Origin: an uncultured Verrucomicrobiae bacterium
GTDB lineage: Bacteria; Verrucomicrobiota; Verrucomicrobiia; Chthoniobacterales; JAFAMB01
Reading direction: 5' to 3'
Assembly: GCA_963762565.1 (NCBI GenBank)
Contig: CAVXLD010000001.1
Coordinates: forward strand, 480,001 to 544,000
DNA length: 64,000 bases
In this document: positions 9,767-60,995 of the stretch, piece after piece
How positions within the stretch are numbered: position 1 is the stretch's first letter
Layout of the letters: each line of letters begins with the position of its first letter
Made by a program: the position numbers and the translations under genes
Notes under the pieces: generated by a model
Databases searched by the model: none
Seen by the model: the letters and a program-made list of their open reading frames with translations, nothing else
What the model was told of the DNA's origin: nothing

Positions 9767-9784
9767 CCGCTTCGCGGCGAACCT

Positions 9785-10163
9785 TGGTAGGGCGAGGCCG
9801 GCCGCTTCGCGGCGATGACGAATAGCAGATAGCAAATTTGGTTGTCGCTTGCAGAGCGCTGCCACCGATCTGGTGGGGCGAGGCTCCGGATTAGCCGGGC
9901 AAGACCGCAACGAGAACTGGCGTTTCGTCGGTATATCAGATGCGGTATCCAATAGCTGCCGAGCCGGGGATTGCGCGGACCACGGCTCGGCAGCTCTTAG
10001 TTATTGCACACATCAATTAGTGCATGGCTATCCGCCCTGCCTACCTCTTCACTCGTTCCGCAGCCTCGCCCCACCAAGCTGAGCGCGCGTGGCCTTCTGC
10101 AAGTTCTGGCACGTGCATTTGCTATTTGCTATCACCGCGAAGCGGCCGGCCTCGCCCTACCAA
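9785..10163. repeat. Nested GTAG/GTGG-tagged palindromic element, family B
   Basis: Outer IR ttggtagggcgaggccggccgcttcgcgg / ccgcgaagcggccggcctcgccctaccaa enclosing an inner inverted pair ggtggggcgaggc / gcctcgccccacc. Confidence 0.85.
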
Positions 10164-10229
10164 CGTTTAGGCCACTTTCTTCGATAAGTGGTTGCTCACC
10201 GCCACAAACTGTAATAACAGTATTACTTA

Positions 10230-13176: not shown

Positions 13177-13908
13177 TTAGTTATTCGCTGGAGACGGCGC
13201 CGCGCTCAGCTTCTGCTGATTTTCAGGGTGCTTTGGGCAGTAAACCTGCTGGGTTAAGCTAAGCAGGTTTTGGTAATTGGCGCCGGCATTGTCAGGGCAC
13301 TGGGGAATCCCAAATCTAAAGTATGGCTGAAAGTCTGGAATGCTGGGAACACTGGTCGCTCCGGGATGATCCCGGAGATATTCGTCCTTAGCCGCTTCAA
13401 TGGTTAACATATTGTTCAAGCAGACGCGCTGGTTCTGCTGATTGAGTGCGGATAAAACCGAGGTCGTGATCAAGGCCGAGACCAGCGCGATAATGGTGAT
13501 GACAACCAGCAGCTCGATTAAAGAGAGACCAGCGTGCCGCCTCCTTCTCGCTGTGAGGAAATACGTCCACGGCGGCGCATGCCCAGCGCCTGGAGGGGAG
13601 CCGCTTTGTCGCCTGGCAGTTCTATAGGATGGCTGCTGGCGGCTCCCGGGAATAACCCAGCGTGGTGCTTGCACCCAGCCTCCCTGTTTCGGCGCGAATT
13701 GATTCGGACGCCGCACGTAGAACCGCCCTACCCTGGGTCGTTCCCGGGAGCCGCTTGCTGCCAACTTGCAGAGCTGCCGAGTTGCAAAGCGGCTCCCCTC
13801 CAGGCGTTGGGCAGGTGCTGTATCGTATCGCCTTGCAATGCGTGTAACCTTTAGAATCTGAAGGAACCACTTCCTGAAACCTAACCGCGGCTCACCGGTA
13901 GGCCTCAT
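13177..13908 (-). CDS. Type IV prepilin-like protein (start uncertain)
   Basis: Class III signal RRRRHAG/LSLIELLVVITII with E5, C-terminal Cys pair; mature part 13177-13527. Confidence 0.8.
   Translation of the reverse strand: MRPTGEPRLGFRKWFLQILKVTRIARRYDTAPAQRLEGSRFATRQLCKLAASGSRERPRVGRFYVRRPNQFAPKQGGWVQAPRWVIPGSRQQPSYRTARRQSGSPPGAGHAPPWTYFLTARRRRHAGLSLIELLVVITIIALVSALITTSVLSALNQQNQRVCLNNMLTIEAAKDEYLRDHPGATSVPSIPDFQPYFRFGIPQCPDNAGANYQNLLSLTQQVYCPKHPENQQKLSAAPSPANN
13580..13813. repeat. 234-bp imperfect palindromic element, family H
   Basis: 29-bp terminal IR with one mismatch (tgcccagcgcctggaggggagccgctttg) plus extended inner pairing; relative at 58738-59165. Confidence 0.85.
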
Positions 13909-14518
13909 AGTTCTCCAGGTCATCCTTCAACAGAAAATCGCGCAACACTTTCTGGGTCACCAGGTTAAGCGCTCTAAATACGTTCCTGCCAGTCACGCAA
14001 TCACCGGCCAGACGATCAACTTTCCGATCCGGTGCTCGTATTAGCAGATCGATCGCATCGGTCGGTGCTATCTGCTCTTCTGATAGATCGCGCTTATTAT
14101 AGAATAACATCCAGGTTAGTTGCTCAGGCTTGAGGTCAAGTGTTGCCAGATTTTCTTCCAGATTCCTAAGACTCTCGATATTGGCCTCCATTCGATCCCA
14201 TTGTGAGTCCACAATAAAGATTAGACCGTCGGCACCGCGAAGAACCAGTTGCCGCGTTGCGTTGTACATCACCTGGCCTGGAACGGTCCAAAGCTTGAAT
14301 CGCACTTTGAAACCTTTTACTGAGCCACCGGTAATCGGAAGGAAATCAAAGAAAAGCGTCCGGTCATTTTGGGTCGGTAATAAGACTAAGTTACCTCTAT
14401 CCTGCGCATCCACTCGCTCGTGGACATAGCCAATAGAGGATGTCTTACCACCCAGGGCGCAGCCATAGTAAACGATCTTAAATTCGACCTCACCCTTAAC
14501 GAAATTGATGAAAGACAT
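13892..14518 (-). CDS. mglA: MglA-like small GTPase
   Basis: KIVYYGCALGGKTS, DRTLFFDFLP, TVPGQV.YNATR, NKRD. Confidence 0.9.
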   Translation of the reverse strand: MSFINFVKGEVEFKIVYYGCALGGKTSSIGYVHERVDAQDRGNLVLLPTQNDRTLFFDFLPITGGSVKGFKVRFKLWTVPGQVMYNATRQLVLRGADGLIFIVDSQWDRMEANIESLRNLEENLATLDLKPEQLTWMLFYNKRDLSEEQIAPTDAIDLLIRAPDRKVDRLAGDCVTGRNVFRALNLVTQKVLRDFLLKDDLENYEAYR

Positions 14519-16083: not shown

Positions 16084-16139
16084 GTCTTTAGCCGCGACGA
16101 AATCGCAATCGTTCTCTTAATGACACCAGCCCATCGCGG

Positions 16140-16315
16140 GGGAGGGATCGCAGCCTGTCCGACATAGCCTTCCATCGAGGGTCTTTTCTTCTCAGCCCTA
16201 GCGACGTCGGATCCCCGCGATCCGTTATCGAAGCCCAGGGCGTATTGAATCTTCGGACGAAAATACACCCTTAGGTTGCGACGCGTTCGCAGCGCGCGGG
16301 GACGCGCGCCCTCCC
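16140..16315 (+). repeat. Family A element interrupted by a family F mini-element (16154-16211)
   Basis: Removing cctgtccgacatagcc...tagcgacgtcgga restores a unit of about 118 bp. Confidence 0.8.
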
Positions 16316-16360
16316 CGGATTCGAGGACGAGCACGAAGCGCCTGACGAGCCTAAGGCGAG

Positions 16361-17530
16361 TCACCCCGGTAACGCCCCCACATACCGCGCTCGAGGACGG
16401 ATTAGATCGCCCTGGCGATGTTGCTCGATGGCATGGCCGATCCAACCAGCGACGCGGCCAAGAGCAAAGATCGTAACCGGCGAGCCCGCCGGAAGATCGA
16501 AGGCGCGAGCCACCGCCGCTAAAGCCAAATCAATGTTTGCAGGTTTTCGGAGCACTTGAGCGGCCTGGGTAACCCGCTTTGCTTGAGCCTCGCCTGCCCT
16601 GATTTTTCTTAGCATCTGCATGAGTGCTTTAGCACGGATGTCACCTCCCGGGTAGAGCGGATGCCCGAATCCAGGAATAAACCCTTTCTGTCTCTGCCAC
16701 TCTACCAGTGTGGTACGCAACGCCTTGCTGCACTCCAGCTCGGCGAGTAGTTGATAGCAGACCAGACTCATGCCGGCATGACGATGGCCTCTCAACGCAC
16801 AGAGTCCTGCCAATACGACTTCATAGAGACTGCTTCCAGCTGAGGCCACAACACGTGCTGTGAAGGAGGAAGCGTTTAGCTCGTGATCCATGCACAAGAT
16901 CAGCGCAGCGTTCAGCACGCCGGCCAGCTCCGGACTTCCGGGTGCCCACTTTTGCTGCAATTGTTCCGCCGCGGTCTCCAAGCGCACGTTAGAACGCCCG
17001 ATCAAACATCTTAGAAACAGCTCCAGGATTCTCCACCCAGTCGATAGCGCATTAGGCACGGTAAGATCATATCCGCCAACATCATGGTCGCTCAGTTCCA
17101 GCAGGGACCGTTGAAACTCTCTTAGCGGCGATGAACCGGGTTCTGGCTTGAGAGGGGGGCCGTCCGCAAACACCTCAAAAGGCTGATCTCGGTTCCAGAA
17201 CCATCGAACCGCCCTGGAAAACGGCTCCGATCGCGCCAGGTCAACTGCGTTGCGGCCTCGGTAATAAAGCTGTCCCTCATCAATGAGCGTCAACTCCGTT
17301 TCCAACAGCGGTACGCCCCAAGACAAAGCAGTCGTGAGTTTGGTCGCAGGCTCACGGCGGACTTCTTTCCGTTGCCGCAGCCGTTCCAAATCCAGTCGAT
17401 TGTATCGACGCGACCGGGAATTATCTCCGGCTTCGGATCGAACCCAGCCGCGACTCACATAAGCATACAAGGTCTGCCGCGACACACCAAGGTAGCGGGC
17501 GGCTTCGGCGGAGGTAAGGAGAAGGTTCAT
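16361..17530 (-). CDS. HTH-citrate synthase fold fusion protein
   Basis: N-terminal excisionase/MerR-like HTH (AEAARYLGVSRQTLYAYVSRG); DHELNAS, GHRHAG, GFGHPLY, ANID. Confidence 0.9.
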   Translation of the reverse strand: MNLLLTSAEAARYLGVSRQTLYAYVSRGWVRSEAGDNSRSRRYNRLDLERLRQRKEVRREPATKLTTALSWGVPLLETELTLIDEGQLYYRGRNAVDLARSEPFSRAVRWFWNRDQPFEVFADGPPLKPEPGSSPLREFQRSLLELSDHDVGGYDLTVPNALSTGWRILELFLRCLIGRSNVRLETAAEQLQQKWAPGSPELAGVLNAALILCMDHELNASSFTARVVASAGSSLYEVVLAGLCALRGHRHAGMSLVCYQLLAELECSKALRTTLVEWQRQKGFIPGFGHPLYPGGDIRAKALMQMLRKIRAGEAQAKRVTQAAQVLRKPANIDLALAAVARAFDLPAGSPVTIFALGRVAGWIGHAIEQHRQGDLIRPRARYVGALPG

Positions 17531-17542
17531 CGGGGTCTGTCC

Positions 17543-17732
17543 GTGGAGCGCTGCCTCGCTTGCGAGGCCGTGGCGAGCAGGGCTGATGACGAGGCATATC
17601 GGCGGCTCCCCTCGTTCCCTCGCATGTCCCGGACTCGGCCTATGTACGACACAGTGCGCAGCACACAAAGCGACCTATATCATTTCGAATACCCTTGCTC
17701 ACCACGGCCTCGCAAGCGAGGCAACGCTCCAC
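17543..17732. repeat. Inverted REP doublet, family C
   Basis: gtggagcgctgcctcgcttgcgaggccgtgg ... ccacggcctcgcaagcgaggcaacgctccac; same unit as the array at 52729. Confidence 0.85.
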
Positions 17733-17745
17733 AGTCAGCCATCAT

Positions 17746-17794
17746 ATTGATTTATCAATCAACATTGACGACATAACGAATCCGTTCTCATGCT
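17746..17794 (+). promoter_or_regulatory. Palindromic operator plus sigma70-like promoter
   Basis: ATTGAT-TT-ATCAAT (17746-17759), TTGACG (17765-17770), CATGCT (17789-17794), ATG at 17801. Confidence 0.6.
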
Positions 17795-20236: not shown

Positions 20237-20349
20237 AGCCGGTATCGACTGGTCGGTTCAACCCCAGGTTGCATGCCGAGAATCCCGAATCCGCGCCGAT
20301 ACCAGAGAGACTCGCGGCTTGCCGCGATTAAGTGCTGTTGGGCCCAAGG

Positions 20350-20630
20350 TTGGTAGGGCGAGGCTCCGTTCGCTGGTGTTCACAAGGATGGGCCCCGCAT
20401 GCTATCAGGGATCTCCATTGGGCCAGAGAGACCGCCGAGTCGCGGTCTATCGTGTCCTTGCTCTGTGATGTCACGGGCCTGGATAAGCAACCAACAAAAT
20501 CTACGCCGTCAATAGGTGGCACACCATAGACCGCGGCTCGGCAGCTTTCTGGCCTGAGCACGTGACTTAGCCATTCACACCGATCGCCTCGCGAGCGTCT
20601 CGAGATCATTCCGGAGCCTCGCCCCACCAA
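20350..20630. repeat. Family B REP doublet with loop inserts
   Basis: ttggtagggcgaggctcc ... ggagcctcgccccaccaa with inner gccgagtcgcggtctat / atagaccgcggctcggc. Confidence 0.8.
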
Positions 20631-21542: not shown

Positions 21543-21829
21543 TTCTCGGACTGATACGCTCCTGGACCTAAAAAAGTTTTCCGAGGCATTCAATATCCGC
21601 AGATTTCGCAGATTACTCAGATTTCGGTTTGGGGTCTGATATGCCAGGGAGTTATTGAACTGTGTCTTCGGGAACATCTTCCTTAGCGAGCTTCGCTCTC
21701 CGGTGGAAACCGTCTGCAAGCGCCACGTTTTTGCTACGTCCCTGACAGCGCCCAACCCCAAAACGAAATCTGCGTAATCTGCGAATATTCCTTTTCTTAA
21801 AATCAGCGATCCGCGGTTCAACTCTCCTC

Positions 21830-33647: not shown

Positions 33648-33732
33648 CGGAGGGAGTGGGATTCGAACCCACGGACCCTTTCGGGTCTCCGGTTTTCAAG
33701 ACCGGTGCAATAAACCGCTCTACCATCCCTCC
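33648..33732 (-). tRNA. tRNA-Ser (anticodon TGA), CCA not encoded
   Basis: GGAGGGATGGTAGAGCGG...CCGGTCTTGAAAACCGG...long variable arm...GTTCGAATCCCACTCCCTCCG. Confidence 0.95.
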
Positions 33733-51592: not shown

Positions 51593-52715
51593 AGGGTCAC
51601 GTCTTAACAAACAACTATTCTGGTCTTGACATCGTCACTTTCTGAACCCTAAGAGATCGGTGCTATGGCCCGGCCGACGAGATTGGATATTGCGGGGGGA
51701 TGGTACCACGTGGCGAATCGAGGTATCGAACGAAAGACCATCTTCCGAGGCCGCTCGGGGTACGAACACTTTATTGAGCTGATCAGTACGCTACCCCGGC
51801 GGTTCGGTTTGCGAGTGCACGCCTACGTGCTCATGCCCGATCACTATCATCTACAGATCGAAACGCCCAAGGCCAATCTGAGCCGGGCCATCCAGTGGCT
51901 GAACGTCAGCTATAGCATCTGGTTCAATAAGAAGCATCAGCGGGTCGGGCCGCTGTTTCAGGGTAGATTCAAGGCCATCCTGCACAATTGCTCCAGCCAC
52001 GCCCCAACCATTAACAAGTATATTCATCTTAATCCGGTTCGGGTGTGGCGCTCGGGTGGTCACGAGCGCCGGGCGGGTGCTTCGGACCAAGCAACTGCGG
52101 CCAAGCGCGGTGCTGCCCGAGTGGAAGCTCTGCGCGCGTACTCCTGGAGTTCATACCACTATTACAACGGCGAAGAGCGAGCTCCGCTCTGGCTGACCAC
52201 TCAGACCGTACTGGAGCTACTAGAGCCAGGCAGAAGAGCCACCACCCAGACGGCGGCCTATCGCCGAGAATTGGAACGGGCTGCAGCCGCGGATCAATTG
52301 GAAACGGATTGGAAGACTGAGCTCAAAGCCAGCCTGCTGCTTGGGTCAAGCGACTTTGTGGGGCGAATGAAAAAACGGCTGAGCGGTGATCGCCGTGAAC
52401 AGACGGCGTTAAGGAAGGCAAGCCAAGGGGCCTTAAGCTGGAATCGGATTACAGCGGCGGTAAGTCAGCTTTGGGACCAGGATTGGGAATTGTTGCGCAC
52501 GAGTTACGGTACCGGCGCCCTGGCGGCGGCGCTCTACTTGGCGCGTAATCACTCCGACCAGACCCTACGCGAACTAGGCGCCCTAGCCGGCGGGATGCAA
52601 TACCCTGCTGTAACCATGGCCATTCGTCGTTTTACCAACCGATTAAAAACCGATAAGACCTTGGCCGTAAAGGTAAAACAGTTGGAGAGAATGTTGCAAA
52701 TTAAGACGTGACCCT
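51593..52715 (+). mobile_element. Y1 transposase element bounded by terminal inverted repeats (TIRYT-like)
   Basis: Perfect 15-bp IR AGGGTCACGTCTTAA at 51593-51607 and 52701-52715. Confidence 0.75.
51665..52711 (+). CDS. HUH/Y1 transposase (IS200/RAYT family) with C-terminal HTH-like extension
   Basis: YHVANRG, AYVLMPDHYHL (HUH), GPLFQGRF, YIHLNPVR, YSWSSY. Confidence 0.92.
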   Translation: MARPTRLDIAGGWYHVANRGIERKTIFRGRSGYEHFIELISTLPRRFGLRVHAYVLMPDHYHLQIETPKANLSRAIQWLNVSYSIWFNKKHQRVGPLFQGRFKAILHNCSSHAPTINKYIHLNPVRVWRSGGHERRAGASDQATAAKRGAARVEALRAYSWSSYHYYNGEERAPLWLTTQTVLELLEPGRRATTQTAAYRRELERAAAADQLETDWKTELKASLLLGSSDFVGRMKKRLSGDRREQTALRKASQGALSWNRITAAVSQLWDQDWELLRTSYGTGALAAALYLARNHSDQTLRELGALAGGMQYPAVTMAIRRFTNRLKTDKTLAVKVKQLERMLQIKT

Positions 52716-52728
52716 GGTGGTACGGTCT

Positions 52729-53002
52729 CTCGCAAGCGAGGCAGTGCTCCACGGGCGGCAAGCCCTCTCGGCCTCGCGAGCGAGGCAGCGCTCCACGAGT
52801 GGCGACCCCTTTCGGCCTCGCAAGCGAGGCAACGCTCCACGGGTGCCGACCGCCTCGGCCTCGCAAGCGAGGCAACGCTCCACGGGTGCCGACCGCCTCG
52901 GCCTCGCGAGCGAGGCAGCGCTCCACGGGTGCCGACCGCCTCGGCCTCGCTAACTGTCGCGCCGCAGGCCTTGCGAAGGCGGAAGCGAGGCAGCGCCCCA
53001 CG
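52729..53002. repeat. Tandem array of about six 43-44-bp units containing the family C REP
   Basis: ctcgc(a/g)agcgaggca(a/g)cgctccacg repeated head to tail; other copies at 17543, 17702, 34056, 54771. Confidence 0.9.
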
Positions 53003-56261: not shown

Positions 56262-56465
56262 CGTTAGAAATATCCGCAGATTGCTCGGGCCCCACAAGAC
56301 GCTTCGTTACAAAAGCCTCGCGCAGAGGTGGCAGAGGACGCAAAGGCGAAGACAAAAATTTCGGGGTGGTCCAGCGTTCGCCACCACCGATCGCGATCAA
56401 GACGTCGCCCAAATAAAAGCCGTGCTCGGATCAGTCACGTTGGATTTCAGCCACACCGTGGGCCC

Positions 56466-56560
56466 GGCTCGGCGGGTGTGTCGGACCGGCAAACGAAATC
56501 TTCTTTCAAAATCGCAGCCCCTGGAAGGCCGCCTAGACCGTGCGGGAGCCTCGCCCCACC
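56466..56560 (-). repeat. Family B REP with a 70-bp loop insert
   Basis: ggctcggcg ... ggagcctcgccccacc. Confidence 0.65.
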
Positions 56561-60720: not shown

Positions 60721-60780
60721 CAGGCCATGGTAGACAGATTCTTGGCGGGTGCCAATACAAGAAGAGGCGGCCGGGCCTTA

Positions 60781-60995
60781 GTAGGGCGAGGCTCCGGATC
60801 TTCCCGGAACCGTTCGCAAGGGGCAAAATCGGGGAGGGCGCGCTGCCTGTCCGACATAGCCTGATGCATCCGATTGATTTTCTCCCACCGGGGCGACGTC
60901 GGATCCCCGCGCGCCGCGAGGATCCGACGTCGCCAGGGCTGAGAAGAAAAGACCCAGGATGGAAGGCTATGTCGGACAGGCTGCGATCCCTCCCC
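60781..60995. repeat. Family B arm plus two family A arms each interrupted by family F
   Basis: F copies at 60846-60903 (+) and 60923-60980 (-); the latter is nearly identical to 16154-16211. Confidence 0.8.

Follow-up and report, generated by a model that had tools for sequence, protein, structure and literature searches.

A probable bipartite variant of the REPIN-RAYT system in a verrucomicrobial genus, with arms split by filler of about 70 nt

These results suggest that the five repeat copies found in one stretch of a verrucomicrobial genome are arms of a bipartite variant of the REPIN-RAYT system, and that the ~70-nt inserts they carry are filler and not captured DNA; we give this reading a probability of about 0.82. 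In the proposed mechanism, two arms inverted around a centre of 15-110 nt would make up one doublet of 205-300 bp. When the doublet is single-stranded, outer block would pair with outer block (~20 bp) and inner with inner (~13 bp), and the fillers would be left as a large internal loop. A Y1/HUH RAYT would recognise the conserved blocks and copy the gene-less doublets around the genome, as we infer from E. coli TnpA-REP and the Pseudomonas REPINs. The filler would have come with the ancestral element of the genus, the sister genus keeping its blocks 9 nt apart, and its core would since have drifted almost neutrally, with the length and a few positions near the blocks constrained.

The stretch analysed (the window) comprises 64,000 nucleotides, G000:C1:480001-544000, of a genome (G000) of 6.12 Mb and 54% G+C. 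The first-pass annotation of the window had described five separate hairpins with inserts, and the window sequence confirmed both the positions of the five copies and those of the inserts of 65-70 nt. The outer block, GGTRGGGCGAGGCTCC, is at 9872-9887 (+), 10060-10075 (-), 20352-20367 (+), 20613-20628 (-) and 56545-56560 (-), and the inner block, GCCGAG(C/T)C, at 9958-9965, 9984-9991, 20433-20440, 20535-20542 and 56466-56473; in all five copies 65-70 nt lie between the two. The copies are, however, not separate hairpins: four of them are the paired arms of two inverted doublets, A (9872-10075, 204 bp) and B (20352-20628, 277 bp), and the fifth is a solo arm. The 13-mer GGTRGGGCGAGGC occurs eight times in the window at up to one mismatch, seven times exactly, against a mean of 0.21 in shuffles, and 0 of 100 shuffles reached eight copies. 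With an arm profile of 448 genomic arms (nhmmer), the window was found to hold five full arms and a sixth, truncated one at 60780-60845. The features are listed below; the outer shell and the two centres were read from the sequence.

9786..10161, no strand: outer shell, a second palindromic element with the tip GGTAGGGCGAGGC, followed by a different inverted repeat of ~50 nt that has a 7-nt microsatellite
9872..9966, + strand: REPIN A left arm (outer block 9872-9887, filler 9888-9957, inner block 9958-9965; nhmmer arm profile E 1.3e-12)
9967..9982, no strand: REPIN A short centre, the loop separating the inner blocks
9983..10075, - strand: REPIN A right arm (inner block 9984-9991, filler 9993-10059, outer block 10060-10075 with one mismatch; nhmmer E 1.2e-9)
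20290..20351, + strand: decayed remnant of an older left arm, immediately upstream of REPIN B, homologous to the left filler of the same-site element in the sister species G005
20352..20442, + strand: REPIN B left arm (outer block 20352-20367, filler 20368-20432, inner block GCCGAGTC 20433-20440; nhmmer E 2.2e-4)
20443..20533, no strand: REPIN B long centre, ~94 nt separating the inner blocks
20534..20628, - strand: REPIN B right arm (inner block 20535-20542, filler 20544-20612, outer block 20613-20628; nhmmer E 7.9e-14), with a right boundary common to the G005 element
56465..56560, - strand: solo arm C (inner block 56466-56473, filler 56475-56544, outer block 56545-56560; nhmmer E 4.7e-13)
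60780..60845, + strand: truncated arm (outer block with one mismatch, ~45 nt of filler, then a different repeat; nhmmer E 2.8e-6, model positions 2-45)

REPIN A sits at the exact centre of the outer shell, which has the same 13-nt tip and a different interior; no other pair of this outer-shell type was found in the G000 genome. Solo arm C had neither a partner arm nor a second nhmmer match nearby.

Genome-wide, the 13-mer has 472 exact copies in G000. The 16-mer outer block gave 553 matches at up to two mismatches, among which there are 215 +/- pairs whose lengths peak at 205-214 bp and extend to about 300 bp, and the arm profile gave 498 matches, 457 of them full length. The inner block was present downstream in 477 of the 553 outer-block matches, and the insert measured 67-74 nt in 442 of these 477 (mode 70-71 nt). 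The constant insert length noted from five copies thus extends to the whole genome, and the broad distribution that was looked for was not seen. An arm reads TT-GGTRGGGCGAGGCTCC-SGAA (the outer block with its GTAG/GTGG tag), ~70 nt of filler, and then the inner block YGCCGAGCCG. The tag itself is G-GT(A/G)G-GG, with A and G at about 48% and 52%. Self-complementarity within an arm amounts to only 5 bp (GGCTC/GAGCC) around a loop of ~78 nt; between the arms of a doublet, ~20 bp of the outer and ~13 bp of the inner parts are complementary. Doublets differ in length in their centre, which measures 10-29 nt in 88 of 180 and 40-110 nt in about half, that is, in most of the others. Whole elements are polar; of 192, 69 were singletons and the others formed oriented subfamilies of 35, 28, 12, 12 and so on. 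Conservation in the subfamily with most members exceeded 90% at the centre and at both ends, and the two fillers were variable.

The elements are bordered by TT...AA, with T at position -1 in 90%. As judged from crude gene calls, 167 of 193 doublets lie less than 10% inside ORFs. With the same crude calls, doublets showed a mild excess in convergent gaps (28%, compared with 21% of all gaps) and were depleted in divergent gaps (15%, compared with 22%), a location that agrees with the downstream bias of REPs in the accessible text of PMC3733652. Elements of the family occupy several percent of the intergenic DNA.

A candidate partner gene was located through unusually long +/- pairs. At C10:17254-18009 of G000, a unit of 756 bp consists of an arm, a 152-aa ORF (C10:17378-17833) and another arm. 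The ORF matched NCBIfam NF047646, 'REP-associated tyrosine transposase', with 84.5 bits against a cut-off of 80 (E 6e-24), and it matched E. coli TnpA-REP (4ER8) with an E of 6e-7, the HUH and Y-x3-NPV motifs being aligned. Pfam Y1_Tnp gave no match to the flanked ORF at E 0.01, so that the RAYT assignment rests on the NCBIfam model, at 4.5 bits over its cut-off, and on 4ER8. A PF01797 scan of the G000 genome, which missed this ORF, gave 12 Y1 loci, one of them inside the window (51665-52711), and none of the 12 had the motif within 2.5 kb. The Y1/HUH partner that had been suggested for these repeats is borne out by the NF047646 and 4ER8 matches, and their REP-like nature by the inverted doublets, the GTAG/GTGG tag and the arms that flank the RAYT.

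The RAYT is single-copy in G000 and has orthologues 80-87% identical in G002, G003 and G004. Those of the sister species G002 (83%) and G004 (87%) lie beside the same ABC-ATPase gene as in G000 and are flanked by full split arms with ~70-nt filler. In the sister genus (G014) the orthologue shares 56% identity and lies between two inverted copies of a compact repeat, GGTAGGGCGAG - 9 nt - GAGCC. Further RAYT paralogues come with GGTAGGG-tagged repeats of their own, one of which is also split, by about 40 nt. The RAYT and its flanking arms are vertically inherited together. By analogy with the known enzymes, the RAYT would mobilise the doublets, and the blocks would be its putative binding/cleavage sites. 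Integron attC sites and IS200/IS605 PATE-type derivatives were set aside: the elements do not form arrays and have symmetrical arms, and the gene between the arms belongs to the RAYT type.

With terminal inverted repeats of 20 bp and a length of 205-300 bp, present in hundreds of copies between genes and polymorphic for presence or absence, the elements would equally fit an ordinary MITE, i.e., a deletion derivative of a DDE-transposase insertion sequence that is moved in trans through its terminal inverted repeats. However, an analysis of 192 elements, with offsets of 0-5 and lengths of 2-9, revealed no excess of direct repeats, and hence no target-site duplication, at any offset or length. 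Furthermore, among 19 longer +/- units examined the sole real coding unit is the Y1/HUH gene, with no DDE transposase, and the ends carry the GTAG/GTGG tag that is typical of RAYT repeats (PMC3733652). We consider a MITE origin very improbable.

The split arm was found in all five same-genus genomes (5/5), with 37-284 matches each, and three matches were obtained in G014; there were none in the other 24 relatives searched. A scan of the genomes of 185,579 species gave, among the matches listed, split doublets in several Verrucomicrobiota and Chthoniobacterales MAGs, and compact GGGAGGGCGAGGCTCC-Y-GCCGAGCC repeats in MAGs of Planctomycetota, Armatimonadota and Thermodesulfobacteriota. The latter were retrieved by the same scan because tandem copies satisfy the gapped pattern. 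It had been proposed that the two blocks adjoin once the insert is removed, and this arrangement is indeed seen in relatives, with 9 nt between the blocks in G014 and 1 nt in other phyla. The uninterrupted hairpin is thus a real form in relatives, and the window has none; the G000 genome has exactly one, at C5:277229. When the exact-motif arms of G000 were sorted by gap, this single compact arm stood beside one with 16-55 nt and 399 with 56-85 nt. Compact blocks in relatives, together with one compact against 399 filled arms in G000, indicate that the filled form was inherited: it is a fixed inherited state of the genus, and not the product of ongoing filling.

The first-pass annotation had taken the inserts to be largely unrelated to each other. 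In a MAFFT alignment of 448 arms, both blocks were about 99% conserved and the mean interior identity was 38%. Pairwise interior identity was 38%, compared with 25% for shuffles, which were not realigned, so that the control is generous. Alignment-free offsets revealed SGAA, G at +6, CC at +8/+9 and a C-R-R-G motif at +22 to +26, and upstream of the inner block C at -10 and A at -14 and -6. Conserved positions lie in the first ~26 and in the last ~14 nt of the insert, and the central ~30 nt carry at most 0.1 bit each. Position weight matrices were trained on half of the 448 inserts, and the other half was compared with shuffles. The cross-validated AUC was 0.98 for the first 26 nt, 0.96 for positions 5-26, 0.96 for the last 14 nt and about 0.78-0.80 for the core. 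The inserts therefore behave as diverged copies of one template with a free core of ~30 nt, and neither their unrelatedness nor a site-specific capture of unique DNA was borne out.

The nearest-neighbour identity of the fillers was at least 80% in 56 of the 448 arms, 70-80% in 77 and below 70% in 315, i.e., 133 arms had a nearest neighbour at 70% interior identity or more. When the 448 fillers were compared with their own genome, only family matches were obtained, except in one arm with a nested foreign repeat. Two whole elements, doublets A and B, gave no match in phage and plasmid collections. A filler-based search for decayed copies, which is sensitive to recent relatives only, yielded about a dozen. 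These comparisons bear on a capture system, in which a Y1/HUH enzyme would put unrelated DNA of ~70 bp into a compact REP loop and so build up a repeat-spacer record. Such a system would accord with blocks that adjoin in relatives, with a filler core at 0.1 bit or less per position over ~30 nt, with most fillers lacking a close genomic relative and with a tightly fixed length. It is contradicted by position-specific features that extend even into the core and by the subfamilies, by the absence of intermediate or empty forms, by the RAYT's own arms, which bear filler that can be aligned between species in three species, and by the lack of any filler match in the host genome outside the family, or of the two elements in phages and plasmids. 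The dispersed repeat-spacer system that had been envisaged is not borne out, and capture, to which we assign hardly any probability, is close to refuted. The filler appears instead to be a fast-drifting part of fixed length that is inherited with the element, and not cargo.

Folding of the filler was no stronger than that of dinucleotide shuffles (mean MFE z of -0.08 for RNA and -0.05 for DNA, n=200). The left and right fillers of one element, with the right arm reverse-complemented, were 44% alike, and hence would not pair with each other. In the MAFFT alignment, mutual information linked the base after the outer block (C/G) with the base before the inner block (C/T), and the strongest pairs are subfamily markers; no Watson-Crick covariation was observed among the top 40 pairs of this alignment, whose core is weakly aligned. 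At Rfam gathering thresholds, the window gave a tRNA only and nothing at the repeats. A common structure of the inserts, for which these analyses had been proposed, was thus not found. Isolated conserved positions amid variable sequence, a fixed length and a mild excess downstream of genes might have pointed to a family of structured non-coding RNAs or of regulatory RNA elements, with the variable part serving as a specificity loop. Given folding energies that are not below those of shuffles, the absence of covariation and of an Rfam family other than the tRNA, the occurrence of elements in both orientations relative to genes, and the turnover of sites between species, an RNA function of this kind seems to us most unlikely.

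The RAYT locus allows the rate of filler change to be compared with that of four-fold sites, in three arm pairs only, all of them at this locus:

G000 vs G002, upstream RAYT-flanking arm: filler identity 53%, block mismatches 0/(16+8), four-fold sites 32% (n=56)
G000 vs G002, downstream RAYT-flanking arm: filler identity 57%, block mismatches 0/(16+8), four-fold sites 32% (n=56)
G000 vs G004, downstream RAYT-flanking arm: filler identity 65%, block mismatches 1/(16+8), four-fold sites 53% (n=43)

Between these orthologous fillers the length was held at 68-70 nt through compensating gaps. Since filler identities of 53-65% stand against 32-53% at four-fold sites, ordinary drift appears to be enough for the variation of the filler, and a special diversifying process unneeded. 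The blocks and their spacing thus seem to be under strong constraint, with the filler drifting about neutrally.

Copies of the outer 16-mer at 0, 1, 2 and 3 mismatches numbered 438, 78, 37 and 101, and the reversed control gave 0, 0, 9 and 101; compared with this control, a tail of decayed ends is absent. Although a close sibling is lacking for most copies (below 70% in 315/448), almost none has decayed ends. This combination sits ill with a purely selfish cycle of copying and decay, and suggests that resident copies are selected, that conversion takes place or that the filler changes faster.

Turnover of sites was followed between species and strains. In 36 sister-species loci (20 regions of about 370 kb in all, and 16 smaller loci), 13 doublets were found, 11 of which had both flanks mapped in G000; L150 and L003, with intervals of 2627 nt or negative, were dropped, leaving nine usable sites. 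At these nine orthologous intergenic sites with a doublet in the sister species, G000 has a family doublet at two, a decayed piece at one, other palindromic repeats at five and nothing at one. At locus A the sister species have a different compact repeat or none, which makes the locus unfit for rate estimates. At locus B, G005 has a doublet with a common right boundary and unrelated fillers, and the sequence points to a nested insertion that may have been followed by a deletion between repeated blocks. In strain X6, a related soil metagenome contig that may be chimeric in repeats, 27 other letters replace 9839-10115 and there is no REPIN A. Strain X5, likewise a metagenome contig that may be chimeric, lacks 10025-10148, which corresponds to a deletion between two terminal 13-mer copies; in the same strain, again with possible chimerism, other sequence stands in for about 230 nt at the left of doublet B, and the right part aligns. 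The left filler of REPIN A in X5 differs at 11/69 positions, compared with 0/16 in the outer block and about 1-3% in the neighbouring genes. This filler divergence is higher than drift alone would lead one to expect. As to the empty and filled alleles that were to be looked for, related strains do show gain or loss of an element and swaps of half an element.

Two further readings share these data with the preferred one. In the first, which is compatible with a RAYT origin, the elements are host-domesticated architectural sites: a host protein (a nucleoid protein, gyrase or a terminator factor) binds the blocks at their fixed spacing of ~70 bp, and each resident copy is under selection. The lack of a decayed tail among ends whose fillers diverged very long ago, the length conserved through compensating indels and the preference for convergent gene pairs would follow from it. 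Sites of this kind would hardly be expected to turn over as they do, with a family doublet in both species at only 2/9 orthologous gaps and element-less alleles in related strains, and we know of no protein that binds the blocks. We regard domestication as unlikely. In the second, the blocks are points of recombination or re-synthesis, perhaps through the RAYT, so that fillers and arms would be exchanged, replaced or mutated faster than the surrounding DNA; the family would then represent ~500 hypervariable cassettes of fixed length, and the 70-nt spacing a defined RAYT-DNA complex. This reading, which we hold to be doubtful, is left open because half of REPIN B is replaced in X5 next to genes about 2-3% different, because the filler and block of REPIN A in X5 differ so unequally (11/69 vs 0/16), because the G005 site combines unrelated fillers with a common right boundary, and because decayed ends are absent despite the old filler divergence.

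Under the preferred reading of a bipartite REPIN-RAYT system, the recognition sequence of a verrucomicrobial RAYT would be split into two blocks ~70 nt apart, the length between them being conserved and the sequence not. This suggests that a RAYT may act on, or tolerate, two separated sites. The family is a natural setting in which neutral drift can be measured against constraint within a repeat that is selfish or commensal. It also calls for caution in annotation, as repeats of this type give rise to spurious ORFs and to broken assemblies in soil MAGs. It does not represent a novel adaptive or capture system.

REPIN-RAYT systems are known mostly from Proteobacteria, with compact repeats of 20-40 nt. 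Like those of P. fluorescens SBW25 and of E. coli TnpA-REP (4ER8), the elements analysed here are high-copy extragenic inverted doublets with a GTAG/GTGG tag at the outer end and no target duplication, and a single-copy Y1/HUH gene lies between two inverted units and is vertically inherited with them. In contrast, the unit is ~95 nt here and not ~20-40 nt; it is bipartite, with two blocks and ~70 nt of filler that is constrained in length and free in sequence; and self-pairing within a unit comprises only 5 bp, with doublets of 205-300 bp. The compact GGGAGGGCGAGGCTCC-Y-GCCGAGCC repeats (L010, L012, L015, L020, L030, L034, L039, L059 and L078) share both blocks, arranged and oriented alike, and frequently occur as inverted pairs or arrays. 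Their blocks are 1 nt apart, and their tip is GGGAGGG and not GGTRGGG; the likeness may reflect homology or convergence. MITEs and Correia-type elements are likewise small, gene-less, intergenic and strain-polymorphic, with terminal inverted repeats, and differ in that the present elements have no target-site duplication and a Y1/HUH partner in place of a DDE one.

A literature search with the block sequence returned unrelated primer matches only, and for REPIN/RAYT in Verrucomicrobia and Planctomycetes the relevant paper was PMC3733652, to the extent that its text was accessible. There, GTAG repeats are described for members of the PVC super-phylum, among them Opitutus terrae, a verrucomicrobium whose tag is mostly GTGG; head-to-head dimers predominate, and the REPs have stems of 5-13 bp and loops of 2-20 nt, according to the sections available. 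The loop equivalent in the present family is ~78 nt, and with an intra-arm pairing of 5 bp around it, against the published 2-20 nt, a single arm does not qualify as a classical REP hairpin. At ~95 nt per unit, ~70 nt of it free filler, the family appears to lie outside the ranges given in those sections of PMC3733652, and an equivalent family elsewhere in that paper is possible. The same paper (Di Nocera et al. 2013, PMC3733652) describes, in its accessible part, 'TIRtrons': long inverted repeats, in families of moderate abundance, border some of the RAYT-like genes. The TIRs of those elements are, in that account, unrelated to GTAG repeats, whereas the long inverted repeat analysed here bears a GTAG-type tag.

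Several doublets of the REPIN family, i.e., inverted pairs in which each arm comprises an outer block, a filler of ~70 nt and an inner block, harbour other repeats in the host genome (contigs C1, C10, C11 and C12):

C1:66212-66488, C1:301370-301646, C11:82509-82785 and C12:257528-257803: element of 277 bp, its terminal inverted repeats being GTGGTCAAGACATAGGTA...
C1:760750-761385 and C10:334236-334910: doublets whose centre is filled by a long palindromic repeat, GGAGGGGAGCCGCTT...AAGCGGCTCCCCTCC

The insertion point of the 277-bp element in the outer block was identical in four separate doublets, and therefore this element is a secondary repeat that targets the REP of the family. The palindromic repeat was also observed in gaps orthologous to family doublets of sister species.

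The window doublet REPIN A (9872-10075) lies within a further element, and its intergenic gap carries a different repeat in sister species:

9786-9871 and 10076-10161: two flanking halves of the shell element that encloses REPIN A
L120 (species G002) and L119 (species G005), the orthologues of window ~9780-10165: a third repeat of the GTAG type, compact in form, GGTAGGGATGAGCTCC-N-GCTCATC

The tip of the shell, GGTAGGGCGAGGC, is common to REPIN A, and behind it lies an inverted repeat of ~50 nt with a (GCAAATA)-like microsatellite inside. No other pair of this kind exists in the host genome, and its structure varies among related strains (soil metagenome runs X5 and X6). G002, G004 and G005 lack the shell in their orthologous gap; in G002 and G005 this gap is filled by the compact repeat, which has only two copies in the host genome and, in a third sister species (G003:C163), flanks another RAYT (REP-associated tyrosine transposase) paralogue.

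Elsewhere in the window, the following features were recorded:

33648-33732, minus strand: tRNA gene, the sole Rfam match in the window
51665-52711, plus strand: 348-aa gene with a Y1_Tnp domain (PF01797, E 4.5e-14)
52549-53001: array of another repeat, with CCGTGGAGCGCTGCCTCGCTTGCGAGGCC, directly downstream of the 348-aa gene

The Y1_Tnp domain is N-terminal in the 348-aa product, the tail being weakly DnaA C-terminal-like, and four frames of this type (~350 aa) are present in the host genome. CCGTGGAGCGCTGCCTCGCTTGCGAGGCC is elsewhere also joined to the GGTAGGGCGAGGC tip. Bins 13587-14003, 16089-16505 and 17340-17756 contain other high-copy repeat families; here contig depth rose about 10- to 100-fold in four soil metagenomes, and many joints begin or finish. 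Within 21576-21812, short stretches (about 21589-21640 and 21756-21798) have dozens of matches per sister genome, and at the orthologous position G004 carries a family doublet in place of this other repeat of the host.

A paralogous RAYT has a split repeat of its own:

C7:542253-542699: RAYT paralogue, 48% identical, with this repeat on its flanks

The repeat consists of GGTAGGGCGAAAATCTCGGCGCGCC, then about 40 nt, then GCGCCGGATTTGAGCC. Its outer block is present in 46 exact copies in the host genome, and within one arm both blocks are able to pair together.
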